Positions 7,807 to 20,000 of a stretch of 20,000 bases of DNA are shown here, piece after piece. The notes under the pieces were generated by a model. That model ran no database searches. It had not been told where the DNA came from and saw only the letters and a list, made by a program, of their open reading frames with translations. The DNA lies in the sequence record SRR31156797_6573. The stretch is one strand, 5' to 3'. The translations under genes were made by a program, and so were the position numbers. Numbering within the stretch: the first letter of the stretch is position 1; each line of letters starts with the position of its first letter.

Positions 7807-8595
7807 CTACTCAGCATCTTTAGCTAGTCGGAAACCAAGATCTGCCATCACGACGGATTGGCTGACACTATCGCGACGGAAATTTTCGGATTCGTCCGCG
7901 CCAAAAGAGTAGCTTCCTCCGCGTACTGCTTTTTGAGCTAGCGTTGCCTTTTCATCTTTGGCGTTGACAGGGTTTTCTTTCGGGCTGTGGGAATAGTAGT
8001 TTTCGTCAAAGGCGTCGATGACGTACTCGCCGACGTTGCCTGTCATGTCATAAAGCCCGAGTTCATTGGGTTGTTTGAGACCAACGGGGTGCGCTTTATT
8101 ATTTGCGTTGCTTGCGTACCACGCGACATCATCAATGTTGTTTGAGCCGGCGTAAGTGTATTGATTGCTTTTGACGCCGCCTTTCGCTGCAAACTCCCAT
8201 TCAGCTTCCGTTGGTAGACGGTAATGCTCGCCCGTTATTTGATTCAGTTTTTTGATGAACAAGTTAACTTGTTTCCAACTGATGTTGTTAACTGGAACTT
8301 TGGGATCAGGGAAATAACTTGGTGAGTAGCCTGTGACTGATTCAAACAGCTCTTGGGTCATTTCAAACTTGGCTAAATAAAAGCTGTTTACTTTCACTGT
8401 GTGGGCCGGTTTTTCATGACTTTTTGCGGATGGGCTGTCTGAACCCATCGAGTATTGCCCCCCTTCAATGAGTATCATGTCTTTTGCAATAGCCTGAGTA
8501 ATTTGTTCAGTGTCGGCAACCGCGATACCGCTACACAGAAGAGTAACTATAGATACAGAAAGTGACGAAATGGACTTACTTGATAAGCGTTTCAT
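7807..8595 (-). CDS. secreted formylglycine-generating enzyme (FGE-sulfatase/SUMF1) domain protein
   Basis: Signal peptide (…SGIAVA-D), GGQYSMGS, EKPAHTV, YRLPTEAEWEFAAKGG, PNELGLYDMTGNV, RGGS and LGFRL motifs. Confidence 0.9.
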   Translation of the reverse strand: MKRLSSKSISSLSVSIVTLLCSGIAVADTEQITQAIAKDMILIEGGQYSMGSDSPSAKSHEKPAHTVKVNSFYLAKFEMTQELFESVTGYSPSYFPDPKVPVNNISWKQVNLFIKKLNQITGEHYRLPTEAEWEFAAKGGVKSNQYTYAGSNNIDDVAWYASNANNKAHPVGLKQPNELGLYDMTGNVGEYVIDAFDENYYSHSPKENPVNAKDEKATLAQKAVRGGSYSFGADESENFRRDSVSQSVVMADLGFRLAKDAE

Positions 8596-8962
8596 TGAAC
8601 AACTCCAGCAAAATCGTTGGGTGAGAGTTTACGACAAAATTCAGATACGAGGTTACAAGTTGAAAAGAGGCTCAGTTTGCAAACAAGAGTTCGAATTATA
8701 TTAGGTACTCTAAAGTCTGATATCAACAGAAAGTAAAATGTTTGGTTGCAAGCAACACCATGATTTTAATAATTAATATTCTGTTGGTGAATGATATTCT
8801 ACAGTTTTAATACATTTAACTAGCTCAATCTTTGCGGTGGTTAAATTGCACACCTTAAACGTATAGTCTAATCTGATTCCACTTCAGGTTTTTTAAATTT
8901 TTATTTTAATGCTTTGATAACTATTAATTTCTCTATCAAACAGTGACGAAGGGATTTCAGCT

Positions 8963-9988
8963 ATGCACAAACTATGGGTCGTTGTTGCTTTATTTTGGAG
9001 TATTTCTCTTCGTGCTGAAAGTTTGCTAATTGGAGAAGTGGTCGTTGATGGTGTCTCATATTTTGATATTGAAAATGCACAGGAACATATTGCCAATAAT
9101 AGTGTTATTTATTTAGGCCCTGGTGATTTCACAAAAGGTTTGGTGATTAATAAGGACAATGTTGTCTTATCCGGTAGCCAGGGCACTAAATTTGTAAATG
9201 TAGTGATGCACGGTAAAGGAAGTATTATTACTTCAGGCAAAGATATTACCATTGAAAATATAGAGTGCAGCGGTGTTAGCGTGAGCGCTGGTAACGGGGC
9301 CTGCATCCGCCATGAGGGGCACAATCTTACGCTTAACAATGTGTATTTTCACGACAGTCAGCAAGGTTTGCTAGAAGCAAAAAATGATGGCTACCTAGTG
9401 ATTAAAAATAGCCGTTTTGAGCGATTAGGTCATAAAGGTAGAGCGCACGGTATATATACTAATGGGGCAAAGTTGGTAGTTGAAAACTCAACGTTTGAGT
9501 CGATGGTGAGCCAAGGGCATGCAATAAAGTCGCGTTCAAAAATTACCATTGTAAAAAACTCACTGCTATCCACTGGAGAAGGTAAAGATAGTCGACTCAT
9601 GGATGTTGCCAATGGTGGTGAGTTACATGTGTCTAACAGTGTTCTTTATCAAAACGATCGAACGGTCAACAGGCAGGTGATTGGTTACGGGTTAGAAAGC
9701 TTTGATCAAAACGCGGCGAACAATATTTCTATTCTCAATAACCTATTTGTGATGGAAAGAGTTCGCGGTAACGAATTTTTAGCATTGCCCAAATCTTTAG
9801 ACGCGCAAACCATTATTTTTGTCGATAACAATATTTTTGTCGGGGAATTTTTTGATAGCGAAAATTGGCAAAATAACAACTATCAGTTTAAAAACCGTCA
9901 GGAAGCGATGTTAATGGATTCGGAATTACCTGATGTTTCTTTGCTACCCAAACTTTTCGATTTTTATAAACAGTTAGAGCGTAATTAA
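8963..9988 (+). CDS. secreted right-handed parallel beta-helix repeat protein (pectin-lyase fold)
   Basis: Sec signal (…SISLRA-ES); repeated strands ITIENIEC, LTLNNVYF, LVIKNSRF, LVVENSTF, ISILNNLF; polar motifs HGIY and GHAIKSR. Confidence 0.75.
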   Translation: MHKLWVVVALFWSISLRAESLLIGEVVVDGVSYFDIENAQEHIANNSVIYLGPGDFTKGLVINKDNVVLSGSQGTKFVNVVMHGKGSIITSGKDITIENIECSGVSVSAGNGACIRHEGHNLTLNNVYFHDSQQGLLEAKNDGYLVIKNSRFERLGHKGRAHGIYTNGAKLVVENSTFESMVSQGHAIKSRSKITIVKNSLLSTGEGKDSRLMDVANGGELHVSNSVLYQNDRTVNRQVIGYGLESFDQNAANNISILNNLFVMERVRGNEFLALPKSLDAQTIIFVDNNIFVGEFFDSENWQNNNYQFKNRQEAMLMDSELPDVSLLPKLFDFYKQLERN

Positions 9989-10173
9989 TTTCTTATTAGC
10001 TAATGGTCCTTTAATTTATCAAAGCGAACTCAATAGCGCTTTTGGGCTATGTAGGTGGCTAGATTGCGTACATAAACTTGTTTTTACTGCTAATATCATA
10101 TTTGCGTCAGTGTGCGTTGAGCCCAACGAGTACAATGGAATATTCGTATAGAGGAGGCATTTAAGGCTAGTAT

Positions 10174-12513
10174 ATGGACCAAAACAAAGGGAACTTGCGA
10201 AGTTACATCGATGATGTGCTGGCGCTAACGGTTAAATTTCCGGTTTCGATACTGCTACTGAGCCTTTTGGTGGTTATCGTTTCTACACTTGGCTTAAAGA
10301 ACCTGACCTTTAGAGGTGAATATAATGTGTTCTTTGATCCTTCTAACCCTCAACTCAAAGCCTTTGAAACCATTCAAGCCCGTTTTTCTAAAACGGACAG
10401 TATGGCGATAGTCATCGCACCGAAAGATGGTAATGTTTTTGATTCTAACACGCTTAAGTTAATAAAAGAGATAACGGAAGATGCTTGGCAGACGCCTTAT
10501 TCTAGCCGGGTGGACTCTTTATCCAACTACCAACATACTGAAGCTGAAGAAGATGATCTGTTAGTTGCGGATTTGATTGCTCACGATTTTGCCTATAGCC
10601 CAAACGAAATCGCAAAAGTTAAACAGATCTCATTAAGCTCCCCAGAAACCCAAAATTCTATTGTATCGGCCAATGGTGATGTGGCCGTTATCAATATTAC
10701 GGTTCAATTACCCGAAAAGAACATGACGGGTGAAATTGTTGAAGTGTATGACTTTGTGAGTCAGTTTCTTCAACCCTATCAAGCTGAATACCCGGATATC
10801 GCTTTTTACAAAGCGGGACTAGTTGCAATGAACTATTCATTTATGGACTCAGCGCAAAAGGATATTACCACCTTAGTACCCATTATGATGGTGGTCATAT
10901 TGGTGTTCTTGACCCTGATGCTTCGCTCCATATTCTGTGTTCTTGCAACAATGATTGTCATTACCTGCACCGTAGCAACAACAGCTGGGCTCGCGTCATG
11001 GGCTGGCGTGGCGATGAACATTGCTTCAGTAAACATCCCAACATTGATTCTTACTTTGGCCGTAGCCGACTGTGTTCATATTGTTGTGACTATGCGCCAT
11101 CAGATGGCGAAAGGTGAATCAAAAAGTAACGCGATTGTGTATAGCCTTAAGGTCAATTACGTCCCTGTGCTGATTACATCCATCACCACGGCCATTGGTT
11201 TCTCAATGATGAATATGTCGGATTCACCCGCACTACGATCATTTGGCAGTTTAGCAGCGGTCGGGGTGATGCTGGCGTGTGTTTTTGCACTTATATTACT
11301 GCCAGTACTTCTCAAACTGTTTCCAATTGCGAATGCCACTCTTCACAAAGAAGACGCGCCAAATAGTATGGATACGTTCGGCGATTTTGTAGTTAAGCAC
11401 CAAAATTTATTGCTGGTAGTTTCAGTTGTTACCATTGCTGTTTCAGCATGGCTGATAACGTTGAATCGTATCAATGATGAACCTGCAAAATACTTTGGTA
11501 GTCAAAGTGAGTTTAGGCAAGCCGCTGATTTCATGCAGGACCATATTAGTGGTATGGGCACTGTCAGTATCTCGATTGATAGTAGGCAGGAACACGGAAT
11601 TGTTGAACCTGAATTTCTCAACAACATAGACGCGTTCACCGACTGGTTGAGAGTTCAGCCTGAAGTGGATCATGTTACGTCGCTGACGGATATACTGAAA
11701 CGTTTAAACATGAACATGCATGCAGATGAGTCTTCTTTTTATCGGCTACCTGGAAGTTCAGAACTTGCTGCACAGTACCTTTTGATGTACGAAATGTCGT
11801 TACCTTATGGCCTTGATTTAAATAATCAGATCAATATTGATAAGTCAGCGTTGAAAATACAGGTTGTGACTAAAAATCTCGGTAGTGAAGAGTCCATCGA
11901 CTTGGAACAACGTATCTACGACTGGTTTGATAACCTACCTGATTCGAATGGTGGTTATCATGTTCAGGCATCGAGTCCTTTTATGATGTTTGCGCATATA
12001 GGGGCTACCAACATGAAAAGTATGTTGATTTCGTTGCCGATCAGTTTAGCGATGATCTCAGCGTTACTGATGTTGTCACTCCGTTCTTTTAAACTTGGTT
12101 TAATCAGTATTATTCCAAATATGGTACCGGCAGTGATTGGCTTTGGGGTGTGGGCTTTGATTTCCGCTGAAATTAATCTTGCTCTGTCAGTTGTCGCCTC
12201 ATTAACGCTGGGGATTGTTGTGGATGACGGCGTACACTTTTTGTCTAAGTACAAAATTGCCCGACAGCAAGGGTATGATTGTGAAAATGCCGTTCGTTAT
12301 GCATTTCATCACGTTGGTCGGGCGCTTTGGATAACGACTGTGGTGTTGGTTGCAGGGTTTTCCGTGCTTGCGATGTCAACATTTAGACTAAACTCTGACA
12401 TGGGGATATTGAGCAGTATTATCATATTCATTGCACTCATCATTGACTTCTTTTTCTTACCTTGTCTTTTGATGTTTTTCAGTCGTTCTCGTCGTCAACC
12501 GATAGGGAAGTGA
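10174..12513 (+). CDS. MMPL/RND-family inner-membrane transporter
   Basis: 779 aa with two internal repeats, each a TM helix, a large periplasmic loop and about 5 TM helices. Acidic motifs LAVADCVH and GIVVDDGVHF. Confidence 0.9.
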   Translation: MDQNKGNLRSYIDDVLALTVKFPVSILLLSLLVVIVSTLGLKNLTFRGEYNVFFDPSNPQLKAFETIQARFSKTDSMAIVIAPKDGNVFDSNTLKLIKEITEDAWQTPYSSRVDSLSNYQHTEAEEDDLLVADLIAHDFAYSPNEIAKVKQISLSSPETQNSIVSANGDVAVINITVQLPEKNMTGEIVEVYDFVSQFLQPYQAEYPDIAFYKAGLVAMNYSFMDSAQKDITTLVPIMMVVILVFLTLMLRSIFCVLATMIVITCTVATTAGLASWAGVAMNIASVNIPTLILTLAVADCVHIVVTMRHQMAKGESKSNAIVYSLKVNYVPVLITSITTAIGFSMMNMSDSPALRSFGSLAAVGVMLACVFALILLPVLLKLFPIANATLHKEDAPNSMDTFGDFVVKHQNLLLVVSVVTIAVSAWLITLNRINDEPAKYFGSQSEFRQAADFMQDHISGMGTVSISIDSRQEHGIVEPEFLNNIDAFTDWLRVQPEVDHVTSLTDILKRLNMNMHADESSFYRLPGSSELAAQYLLMYEMSLPYGLDLNNQINIDKSALKIQVVTKNLGSEESIDLEQRIYDWFDNLPDSNGGYHVQASSPFMMFAHIGATNMKSMLISLPISLAMISALLMLSLRSFKLGLISIIPNMVPAVIGFGVWALISAEINLALSVVASLTLGIVVDDGVHFLSKYKIARQQGYDCENAVRYAFHHVGRALWITTVVLVAGFSVLAMSTFRLNSDMGILSSIIIFIALIIDFFFLPCLLMFFSRSRRQPIGK

Positions 12514-12563
12514 AACCATAGATGTTTTTAAGTTCGACGATAAAAAGTGAGGAGCCCTTAATT

Positions 12564-13379
12564 ATGAATTTCTTGTTGGTACCAATGCGAAAACGCGGTA
12601 CTGGTGTAATCGCAGCGCTCAGTGTGTTGTTAATGTGTGTTGTATCTCCGGCGTCGATAGCAGATAGCGCAAAAGGTTTGACTATCGCAAAAGAGAGAAA
12701 GGCTCGCGATGTCGGTTGGAGTGATTCGACTGCGACTGTGACGATGATTTTGAAAAATGCGCAGGGCGATCAAAGCATTCGTAAAATGAGAATGATGTCA
12801 TTAGAAGTTAAAGACGATGGCGATAAAGGACTAACCATTTTTGATGAACCTGGTGACGTAAGGGGCAGTGCGTTTCTTAGCTACTCTCATATTGATGGCG
12901 CGGATGATCAGTGGCTATATTTACCCGCTTTAAAAAGGGTTAAACGTATTTCCTCTCGGAACAAATCTGGCCCTTTTATGGGCAGTGAGTTTTCTTACGA
13001 AGATCTCAGTTCATTTGAAATAGAAAAGTATCAGTTCAACTATCTTAAAGACGAAATGGTAGAAGGGGTGGATTGTTTCTTGGTCGAGCAAAAACCAGTT
13101 GATTCAAACTCAGGTTACACTCGAGAACTGGTTTGGATTGATAAAGCGGAATACCGTCCAATAAAAATGGAATATTATGATCGTAAAAATGCGTTGTTGA
13201 AGGTTCTGACTTTATCCGATTATAAACTGTATAAAGATAAATACTGGCGTGCGCATACACTGAATATGGTCAACAACCAGACTGGAAAAAGTACAGAGTT
13301 GAAGACTGAAGACATACAGTTTAATACTGGCTTGCAGGAACGAGATTTTCATAAAAATGTTTTAACGAGATTGCGCTGA
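12564..13379 (+). CDS. periplasmic outer-membrane lipoprotein-sorting (LolA-like) protein
   Basis: Signal peptide; DDQWLYLPALKRVKRI, FMGSEFSYED and YYDRKNALLK motifs typical of the family. ATG 12564 follows GAGGAG (the ORF track starts at 12522). Confidence 0.85.
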   Translation: MNFLLVPMRKRGTGVIAALSVLLMCVVSPASIADSAKGLTIAKERKARDVGWSDSTATVTMILKNAQGDQSIRKMRMMSLEVKDDGDKGLTIFDEPGDVRGSAFLSYSHIDGADDQWLYLPALKRVKRISSRNKSGPFMGSEFSYEDLSSFEIEKYQFNYLKDEMVEGVDCFLVEQKPVDSNSGYTRELVWIDKAEYRPIKMEYYDRKNALLKVLTLSDYKLYKDKYWRAHTLNMVNNQTGKSTELKTEDIQFNTGLQERDFHKNVLTRLR

Positions 13380-14569
13380 TGGCTTTTAATTCGAAGAGCT
13401 TAATACGTGTTAGTACATCGTTGTGCAGTGTTTTTTGTGTCTTCTTGGCTCAAGCCACAGAGAGTTTAGATTTTCGAGGTCAATTGGGGCTTGAGTTAAG
13501 GCAGTTTCTTGAATCTGGAAAAGACCAACAAGACTCATCGCAAGCTTCTGCTTATGTTCAGCCCGAGTGGAGCTGGTATCTGGATGATGCCGATATCGTG
13601 TTTGTGCCGTTTTATCGTTACGATAATATGGATGACGAGCGTTCTCATGGTGACATAAGAGAACTGTATTATTTTACTTCCCGTGGCGATTACAACCTGA
13701 CGGTGGGTATCAATAAAGTCTTTTGGGGAGTAACAGAGTCTGCACATTTAGTTGATGTGATTAACCAGACAGATTCTATCGAATCGGTTGATGGTGAAGA
13801 TAAACTTGGTCAACCGATGCTGCATTTGACGGCAGTAAAAGATTGGGGCGTGACGGAGTTTTTTATTCTGCCTTATTTTCGGGAAAGAACTTTTTCTGGC
13901 CAAGATGGACGTCTAAGAACGCCTGTACCTATTCAAACAGACCATGCGCAATATGAGTCTGCGAGTAACGAAAAGCACGTTGATTATGCTTTTCGTTACT
14001 CAAATACCTTTGGGGATTGGGATTTTGGTGTCAGTTATCTTGATGGTACAGACCGGGAGCCAAGTCTCTTGGTTCAGGGGGGCGAGATAGTCCCTTATTA
14101 TTCTCAAATGCAGCATGTAGGCGTTGATGTTCAAGGCATCATCGGTGACTGGTTGTGGAAGCTAGAGTCAGTATATAAGAACAGCTATCAAGAGTACGTT
14201 GCTAGTGTTGGTGGGTTTGAATACACGCATGTGGGGCTATTTGGCAAGGTTTGGGATTTAGGATTACTGGCAGAGTATTTATACGATTCTCGAGGCGAGA
14301 ACTCGTTTGCTGTTGGTCAAAACGACTTGTTTGCCGGTTTTCGTTTCGCAATGAATGATGAAGCGAGCAGTGAAGTACTGTTCGGTATGGCCCTGGATTT
14401 AGATAATAGTCGCAGTCAGTATTTTAAGCTTGAGGCCTCTACACGGATATCACAAAGTATGAGCCTTGCTATCGATGCTTGGGCTGCGGATAGCGATAGT
14501 TCTCTTGACCCGCTCTACTCGCTGAAAAACGATGATTTTGTCCAAGCATCGTTAGAATACTATTTTTAG
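13379..14569 (+). CDS. outer-membrane beta-barrel protein
   Basis: Signal peptide (…FLAQA-T), amphipathic aromatic-rich strands, the motif FWGVTESAHLVDVINQTD and a C-terminal beta-signal ASLEYYF. TGATG coupling to the upstream gene. Confidence 0.8.
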   Translation: MAFNSKSLIRVSTSLCSVFCVFLAQATESLDFRGQLGLELRQFLESGKDQQDSSQASAYVQPEWSWYLDDADIVFVPFYRYDNMDDERSHGDIRELYYFTSRGDYNLTVGINKVFWGVTESAHLVDVINQTDSIESVDGEDKLGQPMLHLTAVKDWGVTEFFILPYFRERTFSGQDGRLRTPVPIQTDHAQYESASNEKHVDYAFRYSNTFGDWDFGVSYLDGTDREPSLLVQGGEIVPYYSQMQHVGVDVQGIIGDWLWKLESVYKNSYQEYVASVGGFEYTHVGLFGKVWDLGLLAEYLYDSRGENSFAVGQNDLFAGFRFAMNDEASSEVLFGMALDLDNSRSQYFKLEASTRISQSMSLAIDAWAADSDSSLDPLYSLKNDDFVQASLEYYF

Positions 14570-16038
14570 TTGGCAACAAAACAGCCTTTTTCGTCTTTGA
14601 ATGCTCCTAAGTATATTTCTTTGCCAGTTACAGGCTGACCACAGAAGTCAGTGATTTGTGAAGCTGAATCAATAGGGTAGGGCAGTGCAGTTTTATGGAT
14701 GTCGATACTGTCGTCTCGGATAGTGAAGTTGCCAATTTCTGGAGAAAGGAACACTTGGTTGAGTTTGTCATCATTGTGCCAAAAACCTCTTCCATAGACC
14801 AGATTACCTTCATCTTTTACTAGGCGACCTTTGTCTCTTTCACGTAATTTGCCGCTTACCATATTATTAACGATGGTTGCAGAGCTTTCGGGGAAACGAA
14901 TATCGATGCCTGATGTGTTGTAAATAGTGTTGTTATTAATAAGGCTGTTTTGGCCTCGATTGATATAAATACCCACATCATTGCAATGAGAGATGATGTT
15001 GTTGCGTATGATCGTGTTATTTGCTTCATACGGTGCTTTGTTACGACGATCTTTCATGCCACCGCCCCCAATAGAGAGCCCGACTTGAGAGCCCGTATAC
15101 CGTGTTTTAGATGTATTGCAGACAATTAAATTGTTCTCAAAAATACCGCTGGTTGTACCGCCTTTCATAAAAGCGCCATAGCTAATTTTGTTGCCTCCAG
15201 TCTTAATAAAATCACGAATAATATTTTTACTGACATGCCAGTGATCGCCGTGATCGATATTAACTGGGGTGACGGGTGATCCTGTTTTTTGTGGAGAAGT
15301 AGAATAGAAGTAGTTATTTGTTACCGTACCATTGTCTGGGTATAAGTTCTGGTCGGTATAGCCATTTATCTTCAATGCAGCATTGAAATTGACAAATTCA
15401 TTGTTGGAGACAGTTGTATGATCGGCATCGCTGACAATATGAATCGCGTGTTCGCATTTTGAACTGGTACACTCAAATCGAAAACCGTTAATCGTCCAAT
15501 AGGGTTGGTGAAGAAAAATACCTTCAGATGTCTGCATTAACAGGTTTACGCTTCCTGGCTGTTCAGCTAGCAGTGTAATAGGATTATCGGCAGTTGCGAT
15601 TTCGCTACTGGTATTAAACCTTTTGCTTTTTAGTACATAGTCACCTGCAGCAACCACAATGGTTTCTCCAGGTTTGACTTGACGAAGAGCTTCAAGTAAC
15701 GCTTTTGAATCAGAGACATACAAAGTTGCGTTGGACATCAAGTTGAACTTAGTGTCTTGCACGGAAAAGTCTGGGCCAATCATTGGCCAGTGTTCTCTTT
15801 GAAAGGGTTTCCATTGATAGGAAGGGCGGTCGAGTGATTGTGCTGTACTTTTTAGAGTAGGACCGAGTCGATTAAATACAGGTATATCGCTCACTCTATA
15901 AGCTAAGGTGCTTAGTGCATTTGGAACAGTACCAAGTTGGCGAACTAAGTTGGCGAAAACATACGCTTCGTACATAATAGCTAGGTTCAGTATCACGCCC
16001 ATAAACATTAGGTAATAACGTAACCACTTGAAATGCAT
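14566..16038 (-). CDS. N-terminally membrane-anchored right-handed beta-helix protein (chondroitinase-B/PL6-like polysaccharide-modifying enzyme)
   Basis: N-terminal TM segment; ALRQVKPGETIVVAAGDY and TADNPITLLAEQPGSV resemble beta-helix lyase caps; Asn-ladder repeats (VSNNEF, VTNNYF, IFENNLI, IIRNNII, LINNNTI). Confidence 0.75.
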   Translation of the reverse strand: MHFKWLRYYLMFMGVILNLAIMYEAYVFANLVRQLGTVPNALSTLAYRVSDIPVFNRLGPTLKSTAQSLDRPSYQWKPFQREHWPMIGPDFSVQDTKFNLMSNATLYVSDSKALLEALRQVKPGETIVVAAGDYVLKSKRFNTSSEIATADNPITLLAEQPGSVNLLMQTSEGIFLHQPYWTINGFRFECTSSKCEHAIHIVSDADHTTVSNNEFVNFNAALKINGYTDQNLYPDNGTVTNNYFYSTSPQKTGSPVTPVNIDHGDHWHVSKNIIRDFIKTGGNKISYGAFMKGGTTSGIFENNLIVCNTSKTRYTGSQVGLSIGGGGMKDRRNKAPYEANNTIIRNNIISHCNDVGIYINRGQNSLINNNTIYNTSGIDIRFPESSATIVNNMVSGKLRERDKGRLVKDEGNLVYGRGFWHNDDKLNQVFLSPEIGNFTIRDDSIDIHKTALPYPIDSASQITDFCGQPVTGKEIYLGAFKDEKGCFVAN

Positions 16039-16096
16039 AGCAAGTATTCCTCTTCCTTTGGATGTCCCAACTCATACTGAATTGACGAGAGTTTGT

Positions 16097-17185
16097 TTAA
16101 ATCCAAGCATCCTCATTCTTTTCCTTTACGGTGAGAGTGACGAAAGCCTTTCTCAATAGATGTGGTACCAGTAACTTTACGGGCATACGCTTTAGATGCC
16201 CACGAATGTAAAGAACCCAAACAGCAGCATGATGGCCTGGCAATCTATTTGGAGGGAAAGAATGGAACAATGCTCGCTTAAAAGCGAAATCAGCCACTGC
16301 CAGTTTGAGACGACTTGGCTTGTATCGTTGATAAAACACCTCCACATGCTGAGGCACGACTAAATCGAAGGCTTGTTGGCAATAGCGTAATGCGTAATAC
16401 ATTGAGTCTCCGTTTCCTATTTGCGTTTGCAGCTCCTTGAGTTGGTTCCAAAACTCTGGTTGACTGGAAAAACGGATGAGCAACAGATATAGGTCGTAGA
16501 GATCTCTGATGCCTTTATTGTATTCGCTTTCGTAAAATAGGTGTATTGCACTGTGAATAACCATCGCAGCCGGACTTAATATCTTACCTGTATTTTCATT
16601 GTCATCGATATTTATCGCTTGTGATCTTAACAGTGAAGGGTCGGGCGATTCCTTAAGCGTATTCGGTAAGATATTAAAGTGTAAATCTAACTCAGTACGT
16701 CGCTTAAGGTGGCGCATCGGTGGTATCTCTTGAGACCATTGGCGATAGAATTTTTGGTCATAATCATTGAGGTGTGTAGAGAGCCAGCCTTGCTCTCTCA
16801 ATGTTTTTTCTACGTTAGCTAAGACTGCTTCTGAGACAAGAATGTCAATATCACTCATTAGCCTGCCTGAAAACTCGTTAAAACCTGCGAAATGGTATGC
16901 AGACCCTTTCAAATACACCCATTCGATATTTAGAGCGGTAAAGATCTTTTGAAACTGGCGTTTTTCAAAATACAGTTGGTCTTGTTGGTGAACGAAAATA
17001 GCATGGGCAGCATAGATATGTTGCCTGATACTGGAAGGAAGTTGTTCCCATTGACCCATTTTCTCGAACGCGGGCTTGAGTTGAGCAAGCATATTGAAGT
17101 ATCGCGCTTCTGCGATTACTAACGATTGTTGTTTCTTCGTTAGGGTTAAAAAACATGCAGGATCAGCTAGACAATTAATAAGCAT
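16097..17185 (-). CDS. nucleotidyltransferase family protein (NTP_transf_5-like)
   Basis: LKGSAY…GRLMSDIDILV (DxD catalytic motif), ELDLHF and IRDLYDLY. ATG 17185 has a GAGGT SD; the ORF-track start at 17197 is the alternative. Confidence 0.85.
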   Translation of the reverse strand: MLINCLADPACFLTLTKKQQSLVIAEARYFNMLAQLKPAFEKMGQWEQLPSSIRQHIYAAHAIFVHQQDQLYFEKRQFQKIFTALNIEWVYLKGSAYHFAGFNEFSGRLMSDIDILVSEAVLANVEKTLREQGWLSTHLNDYDQKFYRQWSQEIPPMRHLKRRTELDLHFNILPNTLKESPDPSLLRSQAINIDDNENTGKILSPAAMVIHSAIHLFYESEYNKGIRDLYDLYLLLIRFSSQPEFWNQLKELQTQIGNGDSMYYALRYCQQAFDLVVPQHVEVFYQRYKPSRLKLAVADFAFKRALFHSFPPNRLPGHHAAVWVLYIRGHLKRMPVKLLVPHLLRKAFVTLTVKEKNEDAWI

Positions 17186-18104
17186 CGGCAACCTCATTTT
17201 TTAAGGTGTTGTTCATTGCCGAAAGAATCGCTTGTTCGCAAGAATGAAAGTTATTGTATTCGATATAACTAGCAGGGGTTTGAGTCACAAGCTCTTTTGC
17301 ACATTGAAATCCTGCCTTATTTAACACGTTAATATTAAAGCTATTTCTTATTATTTCAGTTAACGCAATAGCAGGTTCAACGGTTTCTGTGTAACAGTTT
17401 TCATCCTTGGTGTAATGGACAAACACAATTTGAGCAGGCCGTACTGGAGCGTTAGAAACCTTTGCATCTGATGAATACGCTTTTAACAAGCTGATGGTTC
17501 CTTTGTGAGTGTCTTTGACCACTTTGCTGAACTGTTCGTCTTTATAATACTCGCGTAGCAACTCGATTGAATTGTTTTTAAGATTAATCGGTCGGCCTAA
17601 ACCGTAAAGTTGCATGGTATTGGGGTCTATCAATGCAAGTTCATCAGATAAAAGTTGCCATCCTTTTGAGACGAGGTAAGCACATAAAGTGCTTTTACCT
17701 GATCCAGAAGGCGCTGAGATGATGATAGCTTGGTCACCTTTAGCCACAGTCGCGGCGTGTAAGATAAAGTATTGGTGTGCTTGACTCGCAATAACCCAGT
17801 TCATCCCCCATTCTAAGAATGCGTGCGCTTGATCAAGTGGTAGGGGCTTAAATGGAGATTGATGATTAAATTTAAAGTTGGCCTGTGGTTTGTATAAACG
17901 TCGATATAGGCTGCCATGATTGACCTCAACGTAATAGTCAACAAAGTGGTCGCCACTAGATTCTAACAAGCAATCACTATAATGATGTTCTATATAGCGG
18001 TGGAGAGAGGAGATATCCGAACGAACGGAAAAAACAAAGGGACCAACGGTAATACAATACTCTTTCGTTTTTTTCACTCTGAATGCTCTAGCTTTGGATT
18101 TCAA
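17175..18104 (-). CDS. HprK-related kinase (HprK-rel-A type)
   Basis: LEWGMNW, LHAATV, Walker A APSGSGKST, LLSDELALID, RPINLKNNSI and THKGTI. The start is TTG 18104 or GTG 18077. Confidence 0.85.
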   Translation of the reverse strand: MKSKARAFRVKKTKEYCITVGPFVFSVRSDISSLHRYIEHHYSDCLLESSGDHFVDYYVEVNHGSLYRRLYKPQANFKFNHQSPFKPLPLDQAHAFLEWGMNWVIASQAHQYFILHAATVAKGDQAIIISAPSGSGKSTLCAYLVSKGWQLLSDELALIDPNTMQLYGLGRPINLKNNSIELLREYYKDEQFSKVVKDTHKGTISLLKAYSSDAKVSNAPVRPAQIVFVHYTKDENCYTETVEPAIALTEIIRNSFNINVLNKAGFQCAKELVTQTPASYIEYNNFHSCEQAILSAMNNTLKNEVADAY

Positions 18105-18375
18105 TGATGTGTAGCTCAGCTAGTTGCTGAATGACGTTTTTAGCTTTAGCTGGATGAGTTTTAAGTAGGTGCTTAAAAGACATATCTGGTTCAGCAGTAA
18201 GCTGAACCAGATAATCAATCACTGACGGTTCACAAAGAAGTGTTTCACCAATAAAAGGACTATAAATTACACCACGCCCTTCACTCAAAAAAGTGCACTC
18301 ATTAATCGAAAAAGAAGGGTGTATGGTAATTTTGCTCTCTTCAGTGAGCATTAAGTCCGTTTTATTCTGTTCCAT
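18088..18375 (-). CDS. PqqD/RiPP-recognition-element (RRE)-like small protein of the HPr-rel-A cassette
   Basis: 95 aa with three short beta-strands (GVIYSPFIGETLLC) followed by helices ending IQQLAELHII, the usual PqqD pattern. It lies directly upstream of the kinase. Confidence 0.65.
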   Translation of the reverse strand: MEQNKTDLMLTEESKITIHPSFSINECTFLSEGRGVIYSPFIGETLLCEPSVIDYLVQLTAEPDMSFKHLLKTHPAKAKNVIQQLAELHIIEIQS

Positions 18376-18378
18376 CGA

Positions 18379-19284
18379 TCAGTAGTGGTTTTGCCAAGTT
18401 TTATTCAAGTTATCTCTTAAGTTCGATAGCGGAGAGTTAAAAGATGATTGATAATTTCGACCATCTCTAGCGATACCTTCCGCCATGTGAGAAATAGCTG
18501 CCATAAATCCGTTTACAATATCCGTTTGGGTAAATTGATAATTGATGACGTTTGGAGCAAGAAGGCCATTTAAATATCCACAAGTTAAGTACTTATGTAA
18601 GTTAGTATCGGAAATATTGACATCAAAGCATCTGTCGTTATCCCTACTAGTGATGTTGTAACCGAAAGAACCGAAGTGGCTATTTTGATGCCCGTGGTAA
18701 CCGCCAGAGCTGATCATTGAGCTATTATGCTGTATTCGCAAAAGGATATTTAAATTATTGGATTGCAAAGCTCCATGGACTGTTGGAGCGTCACTTTGAC
18801 TGGCTAAGATTTTGTATTTCCAATGAGTTTGTGTTCTGCAAGAATTCCAACTGGAAAGTTCATTACAAAATAGACCCAAAAACGATGTGTAGGAGTGTAT
18901 CCCGCAAATCGCTAACGCATCTTTAACCGATTGAGAATTCACATGGCCCCTGTCTTTGAATATATCCCACAAATTCCCTTTACCTGAAAATTTGCCATCG
19001 AAAACATCACACCAATCGATAGGTTTTTTGGGTTTACAATTCGAGCTACTAGCTGTTGAAACGTTACCAGATATTTGACCAGCAACACTGGTGTTAGTGA
19101 TATTAGCACCTGTCCACGATGCCGGGCTTTTGACTGACATTAATAATGGTGAAGCGGCAATTCCGGTTTGGATAAATCGACGTCTAGAAAAGCGAGAAGA
19201 CTGAGGCTCTCTTTTTTGTCCTGCAGCTAATGGCGCTTGTACTTTATCATCCGTTTTTTCAGTTGGAGATGGTTGAGTATCCAT
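18379..19284 (-). CDS. hypothetical exported protein with twin-arginine-like leader and Ser/Thr-rich segment
   Basis: AAGGA SD; SRRRFIQTGIAASPLLMSVKSPAS; 11 Ser/Thr in residues 56-81; 7 Cys. The stop is 3 nt before the PqqD-like ATG. Confidence 0.75.
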   Translation of the reverse strand: MDTQPSPTEKTDDKVQAPLAAGQKREPQSSRFSRRRFIQTGIAASPLLMSVKSPASWTGANITNTSVAGQISGNVSTASSSNCKPKKPIDWCDVFDGKFSGKGNLWDIFKDRGHVNSQSVKDALAICGIHSYTSFLGLFCNELSSWNSCRTQTHWKYKILASQSDAPTVHGALQSNNLNILLRIQHNSSMISSGGYHGHQNSHFGSFGYNITSRDNDRCFDVNISDTNLHKYLTCGYLNGLLAPNVINYQFTQTDIVNGFMAAISHMAEGIARDGRNYQSSFNSPLSNLRDNLNKTWQNHY

Positions 19285-19363
19285 AATCCTTTCCTAGTGT
19301 TTAGCTGACGTACTTGAACTTATAACTACCCAGCGTTAACGTCATTTGTTTTCCGATTACACG

Positions 19364-20000
19364 TTATTTTTTTAACGCATACTTATCCATTAATGAGTAT
19401 AGCGTAGGCCTGGTAATTCCCAACAAATTCGCTGTATTAGAAATATTGCCATCCATAATTGAAATCGCCTGACTAATTGCCCATTTTTCAGCATCTTCCC
19501 TGACTTTCTTAAGATTCAGATCTAGGGTTGTTGCTTTTTCATCTATGTTAAGCGCGAGATCATGTGCGGTAATTTGTTTCCCGTCTGACATAATACTCGC
19601 CGCTTTGACTTTATTCTGCAGTTCACGCACGTTACCTGGCCAAGGATATTTTATAAGTGCATCAACAGCTTCGTCATTAAATCCGTTAATTTGCTTACCT
19701 ATAGCTTGGCACTGGCTTTGTAAAACAGCGCGTGCAATTAAAATAATATCACCATCTCTTTCCCTTAGTGGGGGTATTTGAATGGTAATCTCACTTATGC
19801 GATAAAATAAATCTTCTCTAAACAGCTTTTCATTGACCATATGCTCTAAATTTTGGTGCGTGGCACAAATGATGCGGATATCGACCGGGATATCTTCGCG
19901 GCCGCCGACGCGAGTGATGACCTTTTCTTGTAAAAAGCGCAGCATTTTCGCTTGGAGTGCTAAAGGCATATCACCAATCTCATCCAGAAAAAGCGTACCG
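19364..20000 (-). CDS. prsR: sigma-54-dependent enhancer-binding response regulator, PrsR (PEP-CTERM-box regulator)-like; 5' part lies outside the window
   Basis: The frame is open to the window edge: GTLFLDEIGDMP (Walker B), LQAKMLRFLQE, FREDLFYRI, WPGNVREL and a Fis-type HTH ending LLGITRPTLYSLM. The VGGREDIPVD and YRISEITIQIPPLRERDGD segments match PrsR as I recall it. Confidence 0.75.
   Translation of the reverse strand, partial: GTLFLDEIGDMPLALQAKMLRFLQEKVITRVGGREDIPVDIRIICATHQNLEHMVNEKLFREDLFYRISEITIQIPPLRERDGDIILIARAVLQSQCQAIGKQINGFNDEAVDALIKYPWPGNVRELQNKVKAASIMSDGKQITAHDLALNIDEKATTLDLNLKKVREDAEKWAISQAISIMDGNISNTANLLGITRPTLYSLMDKYALKK

Follow-up and report, generated by a model that had tools for sequence, protein, structure and literature searches.

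The stretch of DNA analysed here (20,000 nt, referred to as the window) carries on its minus strand a gene for a 301-aa precursor-like protein and, behind it, genes for an RRE/PqqD-fold protein, a kinase and a nucleotidyltransferase (NTase). By its kinase, the gene is assigned to the HPr-rel-A cassette. The features are given below; counts refer to alignment A3, which combines the window protein with 123 of the 163 retrieved proteins (n = 124).

18379..19284, minus strand: precursor-like protein of 301 aa, leading the HPr-rel-A cassette (ORF and homologues)
19111..19284, minus strand: predicted leader, residues 1-58 (family register, alignments)
19180..19185, minus strand: twin arginines R34-R35 (121/124 and 124/124 in A3)
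19141..19149, minus strand: Pro46-x-Leu48, predicted RRE-docking motif at -13/-11 from the predicted cleavage site (alignment and LPP register)
19036..19110, minus strand: core, residues 59-83, predicted to be disordered, with Ser66, Ser72-Gly-Asn-Val-Ser76 and Cys83 (AlphaFold2 and alignments)
19069..19071, minus strand: Ser72, best candidate phospho-acceptor (122/124 in A3)
18382..19035, minus strand: body, residues 84-301, poorly conserved, containing a non-conserved Gly/His insert (AlphaFold2 and alignments)
18088..18375, minus strand: 95-aa RRE/PqqD-fold protein, divergent positional equivalent of TIGR04353 (Foldseek and hhalign)
17175..18104, minus strand: HprK-related kinase A (TIGR04352, 293 bits, cut-off 200)
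16097..17197, minus strand: NTP_transf_5 nucleotidyltransferase (PF14907, 136 bits, cut-off 31)
19364..20000, minus strand: 3' portion of prsR (gene for a PEP-CTERM-box response regulator), listed as context (TIGR02915 best match, partial)

The leader and core region under study comprises codons 1-83 of the 301-aa ORF (19284-19036, minus strand). A contig of run X1, possibly the source of the window, is identical over positions 16000-20000 with zero differences, and a contig from another study spans 18746-19164 with one letter different. The protein belongs to no Pfam or NCBIfam family, apart from weak Tat-signal matches in its family, and the ESM Atlas returned only unnamed Pseudomonadota clusters. 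We found 24 close homologues, the named ones from Vibrio and Photobacterium. Searching 1.84 billion representatives with a profile yielded 165 matches; among the 150 listed, most of the distant ones cover only the N-terminal ~95 positions.

The original prediction had described a Tat-like S33-R-R-R-F-I-Q motif, the AASPLLMSVKSPAS stretch and an SGNVS segment, all of which are present in the ORF. It had also placed about 30 disordered residues at the N-terminus; the residues are indeed disordered, but AlphaFold2 assigned a pLDDT below 50 to residues 1-80, so that disorder reaches well beyond the first 30. Residues 81-300 were modelled as folded. Other features noted at that time were counted correctly. 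The 11 Ser/Thr in residues 56-81 (11/26 residues vs 19% overall) occupy positions that are not conserved, and we rejected general Ser/Thr richness as a signal. The seven Cys (83, 92, 127, 140, 149, 219, 235) were ruled out as a modified core, since only one of them, C83, forms part of the family pattern. The Gly/His insert (residues 194-209; 18658-18705) is present, but it is found in the closest relatives only and its His residues vary, which rules it out as a metal site.

Residues 1-83 are the best conserved part of a large unnamed family, with the twin arginines, Pro46, Ser53, Trp57 and Ser72-Gly-Asn-x-Ser76 standing out. Among the 24 close homologues, 16 of 18 invariant columns (a count that may or may not include Met1) fall in residues 1-76, the other two being W91 and N239. 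A3, which left out 40 proteins (near-duplicates of the close group, short fragments, P0081, P0101 and P0152), showed the same concentration: besides the arginines and Ser72, it retains P46 in 120, S53 in 113, N74 in 112, S76 in 122 and W91 in 113 of 124 rows. Mean top-residue frequency was 0.53 for residues 30-57, 0.45 for residues 58-91 and 0.16 for the body. The leader and the SGNxS segment, on whose conservation the original prediction depended, are therefore conserved in both sets.

Within the HPr-rel-A system, NCBIfam models cover the kinase (TIGR04352) and a PqqD-family chaperone (TIGR04353) only. The window kinase passes its model and has intact motifs (His116, Walker A at 131-138, LLSDE at 151-155); a sequence comparison with solved structures gave 0 matches at E<=0.1. 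The 95-aa protein is by position, and probably by fold, the equivalent of the chaperone but is too divergent to match TIGR04353 directly, and 1 of its 19 relatives does so (E 0.029). Its model (pLDDT 82.5) retrieved the lasso RRE TbiB1 as the top Foldseek match (prob 0.98, TM 0.52, E 0.046), followed by other RRE domains. Using hhalign, its alignment matched the set of positional equivalents (82%, E 1e-5); 18/18 members of this set match TIGR04353 at E<=0.01, and the set's profile finds the lasso RREs TfuB1 and TbiB1. The ESM Atlas pointed to MftB-type PqqD chaperones at 0.92, which we treat as a lead only. The RREs of the window and of loci L003-L022 share two conserved cysteines (C27 nearly invariant, C48 invariant); these columns hold Trp and His/Leu in other HPr-rel-A RREs, and the RREs of the window's family sit on a long kinase branch. 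The nucleotidyltransferase has an intact DxD at residues 116-118 (located without alignment to PsmN).

Two described systems use comparable enzymes. According to the study of the linear polyphosphorylated peptides (LPP) of Bacillota (PMC13381572), the LPP leader carries P-13, V-11 and T-1; in the structure Y-16, P-13 and V-11 are bound by the RRE, which also pairs with the segment from -12 to -7; cleavage follows T-1, and Ser+3 is the only phosphorylated residue. The same text states that LPP is limited to Bacillota, with precursors of 35-200 aa, and that deletion of the NTase gene (lppN) changed nothing detectable. For pseudomycoidin, a phospho-glycosylated lasso peptide, PMC6993621 reports that the HprK-type kinase PsmK acts on a precursor Ser and that PsmN, an uncharacterised NTP transferase with a catalytic DxD, is required for the addition of one or two hexoses to the phosphorylated peptide. 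The window system shares with LPP a stand-alone RRE, an HprK-like kinase and an uncharacterised NTP transferase without a cyclase, a conserved N-terminus with a variable C-terminus, Pro at -13 and an aliphatic residue at -11, signal-peptidase-type cleavage (predicted for the window protein), a frequent link to polysaccharide loci and, in the type II precursors described below, Ser +3. It differs in that Tyr-16, the dedicated SpI-like peptidase and the MsbA-like exporter of LPP are absent, and in having twin arginines, an SGNxS core at variable distance, a folded 220-aa body and an occurrence in Pseudomonadota. Neither such a peptidase nor such an exporter is encoded among the window ORFs at 7807-20000 or, judged by eye, next to the cassettes of L001 and L143-L145. 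Paeninodin- and pseudomycoidin-type clusters likewise have an HprK-type kinase acting on Ser and an NTP transferase with DxD; unlike these, the window system has no macrolactam cyclase, B2 peptidase or ABC exporter, and its target Ser would be internal instead of C-terminal. A cyclase or B2 peptidase was found neither among the 11 window proteins scanned nor by eye in L143-L145. The system would resemble LPP in its working but lacks two LPP-defining features (the YxxP tyrosine, and a peptidase and exporter of its own), and it is not a lasso system.

The kinase is common, and the precursor gene accompanies it almost everywhere. At family level (family of G001), the precursor is matched in 20 of 301 genomes, and the identical 20 have the kinase, in adjacent position. 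All 20 loci are ordered precursor-RRE-kinase-NTase, with the kinase interrupted in L016 and the precursor cut by the contig end in L022. In L016 (G017:C29) the kinase is split by a stop or frameshift and prsR is fragmented too, reflecting either decay or an assembly error. At class level the kinase occurred in 27/351 genomes; it is preceded by an RR-leader gene at 25 of 26 new loci, the remaining one being cut by a contig end. A3 found a match in 31 of 350 scored class-level genomes (one was not scored), comprising 22 cassettes, 7 body-only matches and 2 RR leaders without kinase A. At phylum level the kinase was present in 56/341 genomes; among the best-scoring 28 of 53 new loci, a leader gene was present in 25 (in one case on the opposite strand, together with the RRE gene) and absent within 1.5 kb in 3. 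Altogether, 69 of 74 kinase-anchored loci carry an RR-leader gene, and 2 of the other 5 are cut by contig ends. A related-locus search with the kinase gave one locus, a Vibrio MAG; together with the named homologues, this makes a Vibrio relative the probable origin of the window. The co-occurrence of homologues and kinase cassette on which the original prediction depended is seen. The four genes travel together, and the conserved Tat-like front end, with RRE, kinase and NTase as near-constant neighbours, makes the 301-aa protein the likely substrate of an uncharacterised pathway, one that would phosphorylate a single serine ahead of export.

The leader is built from a variable n-region, the RR motif, 15 uncharged residues (37-51) and Lys52-Ser53-Pro54, and cleavage is predicted after Thr58 (or after Ala60). 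All 69 kinase-anchored precursors have the arginine pair, one of them as KR, and 63 of them have the leader Pro. When Pro46 is set to -13, small residues occupy -3/-1 in 118 of 120 rows, compared with 0-40 of 120 at six other offsets; a signal-peptidase-type site thus lies exactly 13 residues past Pro46 in 118/120. The window itself has Ser/Thr at -3/-1, which is atypical, Thr at -1 being unique among the 120 rows; Thr58-Gly-Ala60 forms a second small-x-small site two residues further on. As controls we used ordinary Tat signals (40 TIGR01409 matches in 5 genomes, of which 30 were fetched and 29 parsable). Cassette leaders share with these RRxF/L, an uncharged h-region and a basic residue plus Pro preceding the small-x-small site, but differ in the fixed mid-signal Pro at -13 and in fixed length: Pro in the -13 register was found in 0/29 controls.

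The original prediction had seen a short, weakly hydrophobic stretch interrupted by Pro and Lys. The stretch is there, but Lys52 and Pro54 belong to the cleavage region and, judged from the alignments, Pro46 is likely the docking residue rather than an interruption of the h-region. Position -16, where LPP and lasso RREs are reported to need Tyr or Trp (PMC13381572), is Ala43 in the window; in the family it is A in 43, V in 23, I in 17 and L in 14 of 120 rows. The window leader therefore departs from the LPP-type YxxPx[V/L] motif, with Pro and the aliphatic residue in register and Ala at -16. The arginine pair at -25/-24 lies outside the segment covered by the LPP RRE. From this position and the -13 register shared with LPP, we infer that the signal peptide carries a second code, meant for the RRE. 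Short RR-leader peptides (75-94 aa) that combine Pro at -13 with a Tyr at -16 occur at L080:3609-6141 (G558:C15), L081:4127-4411 and L052:1414-1641; read by eye, these three related leaders (G558, G553) keep the full YxxP motif. The L080 leader has a PqqD-like gene on one side and, on the other, the gene for an HprK-like kinase outside TIGR04352. Possibly, these peptides bridge lasso/LPP leaders and HPr-rel-A leaders.

Kinase-anchored precursors with an N-terminus fall into two types, 41 of type I and 28 of type II. Type I, to which the window protein belongs (42 loci, 41 with N-terminus), has Cys-x-x-Ser-x-x-x-Ser-Gly-Asn-x-Ser or variants thereof. Ser72 is its sole invariant serine, kept in 41/41 (40 aligned, plus L077 from pattern and profile results), next to Ser76 in 39, Asn in 35 and Pro in 35. 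Type II (28 loci) has no SGNxS; it has the Pro in 28/28 and Ser in the +3 column in 25/28, followed by Cys, and its existence rules out SGNxS as a universal mark of the cassette. The alignment of kinase-adjacent homologues proposed with the original prediction confirmed the arginines and the Pro, and Ser72 within type I, but showed SGNxS to mark one of two precursor types. The window protein has Asn at +3. A type I profile made from 22 kinase-anchored precursors, none of them of the window's family, gave its N-terminus 42.7 bits, compared with 10.8 against type II, and the 29 ordinary Tat signals reached at most 17.4 bits on the same type I profile. A score of 56.5 bits against a profile of 108 distant homologues, with shuffles of the first 100 residues reaching at most 10.0 (722 of 1000 shuffles got any score), is partly circular because that profile was gathered by similarity to the query. 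In a quick IQ-TREE analysis of 74 kinases, type I forms one side of a branch with an SH-aLRT of 100, and precursor type tracks the tree with one change; types were assigned by pattern and, for a further 24, by hand before the tree was made, two of these being moved from II to I. A single split speaks for association, not for co-evolution. The shortest precursor, a 74-aa protein at L069:787-1011 (G377:C33), extends 12 residues past the predicted site, with two Cys and three Ser; the body is therefore dispensable in at least one locus, and this mini-precursor is the simplest experimental target.

On the basis of this conservation, Ser72 would most likely be the serine of the disordered segment that is phosphorylated. 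The protein might also be an RRE-recruited, phosphorylated substrate in which SGNxS is structural or modified after export and the kinase addresses another serine such as S66 or S76. SGNxS lies inside a Cys-Cys loop in most homologues (Cys before the segment in 96, after it in 109 and both in 102 of 124 A3 rows), its spacing from the cleavage site ranges between +5 and +23, Asn74-x-Ser76 forms a sequon of the N-glycosylation type, and N74 and S76 are nearly as conserved as S72 in the set found by similarity. Ser66 is invariant in 24/24 close homologues, a conservation confined to the window's family. We nonetheless regard this possibility as unlikely: kinase-anchored type I precursors always keep S72 while 6 of 41 lose the Asn, the x is Pro in some members, which breaks the sequon, and the first Cys is missing in the window protein, which has Thr65 instead, as well as in 7 other of the 24 close homologues.

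The genomic surroundings bear on whether the precursor is modified at all. At family level, 10 of 20 loci lie directly behind prsR and 9 do not; in L001 a PEP-CTERM protein, a histidine kinase and a regulator stand in front of the same genes. Annotation by eye placed the L144 cassette in an exopolysaccharide locus, and those of L143 and L145 among unrelated catabolic or transport genes. In the latter two (L143:7283-10353, L145:12148-15227) the four-gene cassette stands alone beside an aromatic/acyl-CoA catabolic gene cluster, with prsR elsewhere in the genomes. Signal-binding proteins of the TorD/DmsD type are Tat proofreading chaperones, and the RRE could be nothing else, serving an ordinary exported protein while kinase and NTase have another target, such as a small molecule or a component of an exopolysaccharide or PEP-CTERM system. 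The loci behind prsR and the exopolysaccharide locus of L144 would fit this idea, as would the finding that the folded body domain also ends large DUF7507/DUF11 proteins without cassette (7 of the 31 A3-positive genomes). We consider it quite improbable, since the four genes are also found together outside such loci (9/20 not next to prsR, L143 and L145), since a 74-aa precursor with a 12-residue Ser-bearing core leaves nothing to proofread, and since the same kinase/NTase pairing is reported to modify an RRE-bound precursor in LPP (PMC13381572) and pseudomycoidin (PMC6993621).

Export by Tat is the part of the substrate reading on which profile models and motif rules differ. A simplified TatFind-type rule (RR-x-F/L, at least 13 uncharged residues) was passed by 113 of 124 family members including the window protein. 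The latter matches no Tat-signal HMM (TIGR01409, PF10518), and TIGR01409 matched only 12 of 124 members at E<=0.05. The h-region is moderately hydrophobic (mean Kyte-Doolittle 1.42). TatC is encoded in 5/5 cassette genomes examined, which is not specific. That the arginines form an enzyme-recognition leader without export function, the modified protein staying in the cytoplasm or leaving otherwise, would agree with the weak HMM matches, the Thr at -1 and the moderate hydrophobicity but is very unlikely given RR with F/L at +2, a run of 13 or more residues without charge, a -3/-1 site whose register is constant throughout the family, a mature part with paired Cys and stand-alone cassettes without another exporter.

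We therefore return to the 301-aa protein as a substrate of the adjacent cassette. Counting for this reading are the co-occurrence, the stand-alone cassettes, the N-terminal conservation, the Pro register, the LPP parallel, the leaders with Tyr at -16, the type II Ser +3, the kinase-tree split, the L069 precursor, the TatFind-type rule and tatC. Counting against it are the missing Tat-HMM match, Thr at -1, Ala43 at -16, the RRE without TIGR04353 match and its fold E of 0.046, the absence of Pro in 6 of 41 type I precursors, the variable spacing between site and SGNxS, the single tree split, the ineffective lppN deletion in LPP and the 3 of 28 phylum-level loci without leader gene. With these reservations, and in line with the original prediction, we think it probable that the protein is modified by the RRE, kinase A and NTase, its Tat signal doubling as RRE leader, with Ser72 being phosphorylated and receiving a group that depends on the NTase before Tat export. 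In the cytoplasm, the RRE would grip Pro46-x-Leu48 and the strand after it, and the kinase would (poly)phosphorylate a serine within the disordered stretch, Ser72 being the most likely one. A further group on the phosphate, a hexose as in pseudomycoidin or possibly an NMP, might require the nucleotidyltransferase. The folded protein would exit by Tat, and housekeeping signal peptidase I would remove residues 1-58; Tat and signal peptidase would take over the tasks that in LPP fall to an ABC exporter and a dedicated leader peptidase. The outcome would be an extracytoplasmic protein carrying a phospho decoration, in many cases linked with matrix loci of the PEP-CTERM/exopolysaccharide kind.

A wider version of this model is more tentative, and we offer it as a possibility towards which we do not yet lean. 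Pseudomonadota might run a widespread RiPP-style pathway on whole proteins, in which a Tat signal and an RRE leader of the LPP/lasso type have become one and share the -13 register. One 25-residue segment might then recruit kinase and NTase to build a phospho-glycan or phospho-nucleotide on one serine (of the Ser72 or the Ser+3 type, each with its own kinase clade), retain the protein until modified and release it folded into the biofilm matrix. We found no description of an HPr-rel-A cassette substrate in the open literature, subscription journals lying mostly outside the search. With a candidate substrate family, a predicted docking residue (Pro-13) and Ser72 as candidate site now named, a single co-expression of the four genes could test the system. 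If true, this would provide a context for finding what NTP_transf_5 enzymes add, which the LPP work left unanswered, as well as a naturally occurring leader with which to modify and export folded proteins.

A sigma-54-type motif had 24 matches vs 18.4 expected, with none in 19285-19363; sigma-70 sites numbered 2 vs 3.3 expected, and no terminator was found. Contigs from RNA libraries of relatives span parts of the stretch, but their depth is low and they cannot show expression.

For the body itself no fold match emerged, the best E being 0.074 with Foldseek and the best Z 4.1 with VIA-align among 48,161 chains; this does not by itself make it a new fold. By sequence it is a weak, insertion-rich relative (14 bits; close homologues up to 41) of the small domain mentioned above, for which there is no Pfam model. 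In L041-L046 and L048 this domain, which in distant homologues starts with Cys-x-Gly-x-Ser/Thr-Pro-Gly-Tyr-Trp, ends DUF7507, DUF7467 or DUF11 repeat proteins. Beyond the cassette, secreted-looking beta-helix proteins (8963-9988 and 14566-16038, within 8963-16038) lie on either side of an MMPL/RND transporter, a LolA-like protein and an unannotated 396-aa protein (10174-14569), and a protein with a formylglycine-generating-enzyme-like domain (PF03781) is encoded near the locus at 7807-8595. The gene for the 490-aa beta-helix protein comes after the NTase in L001 and L144 too.
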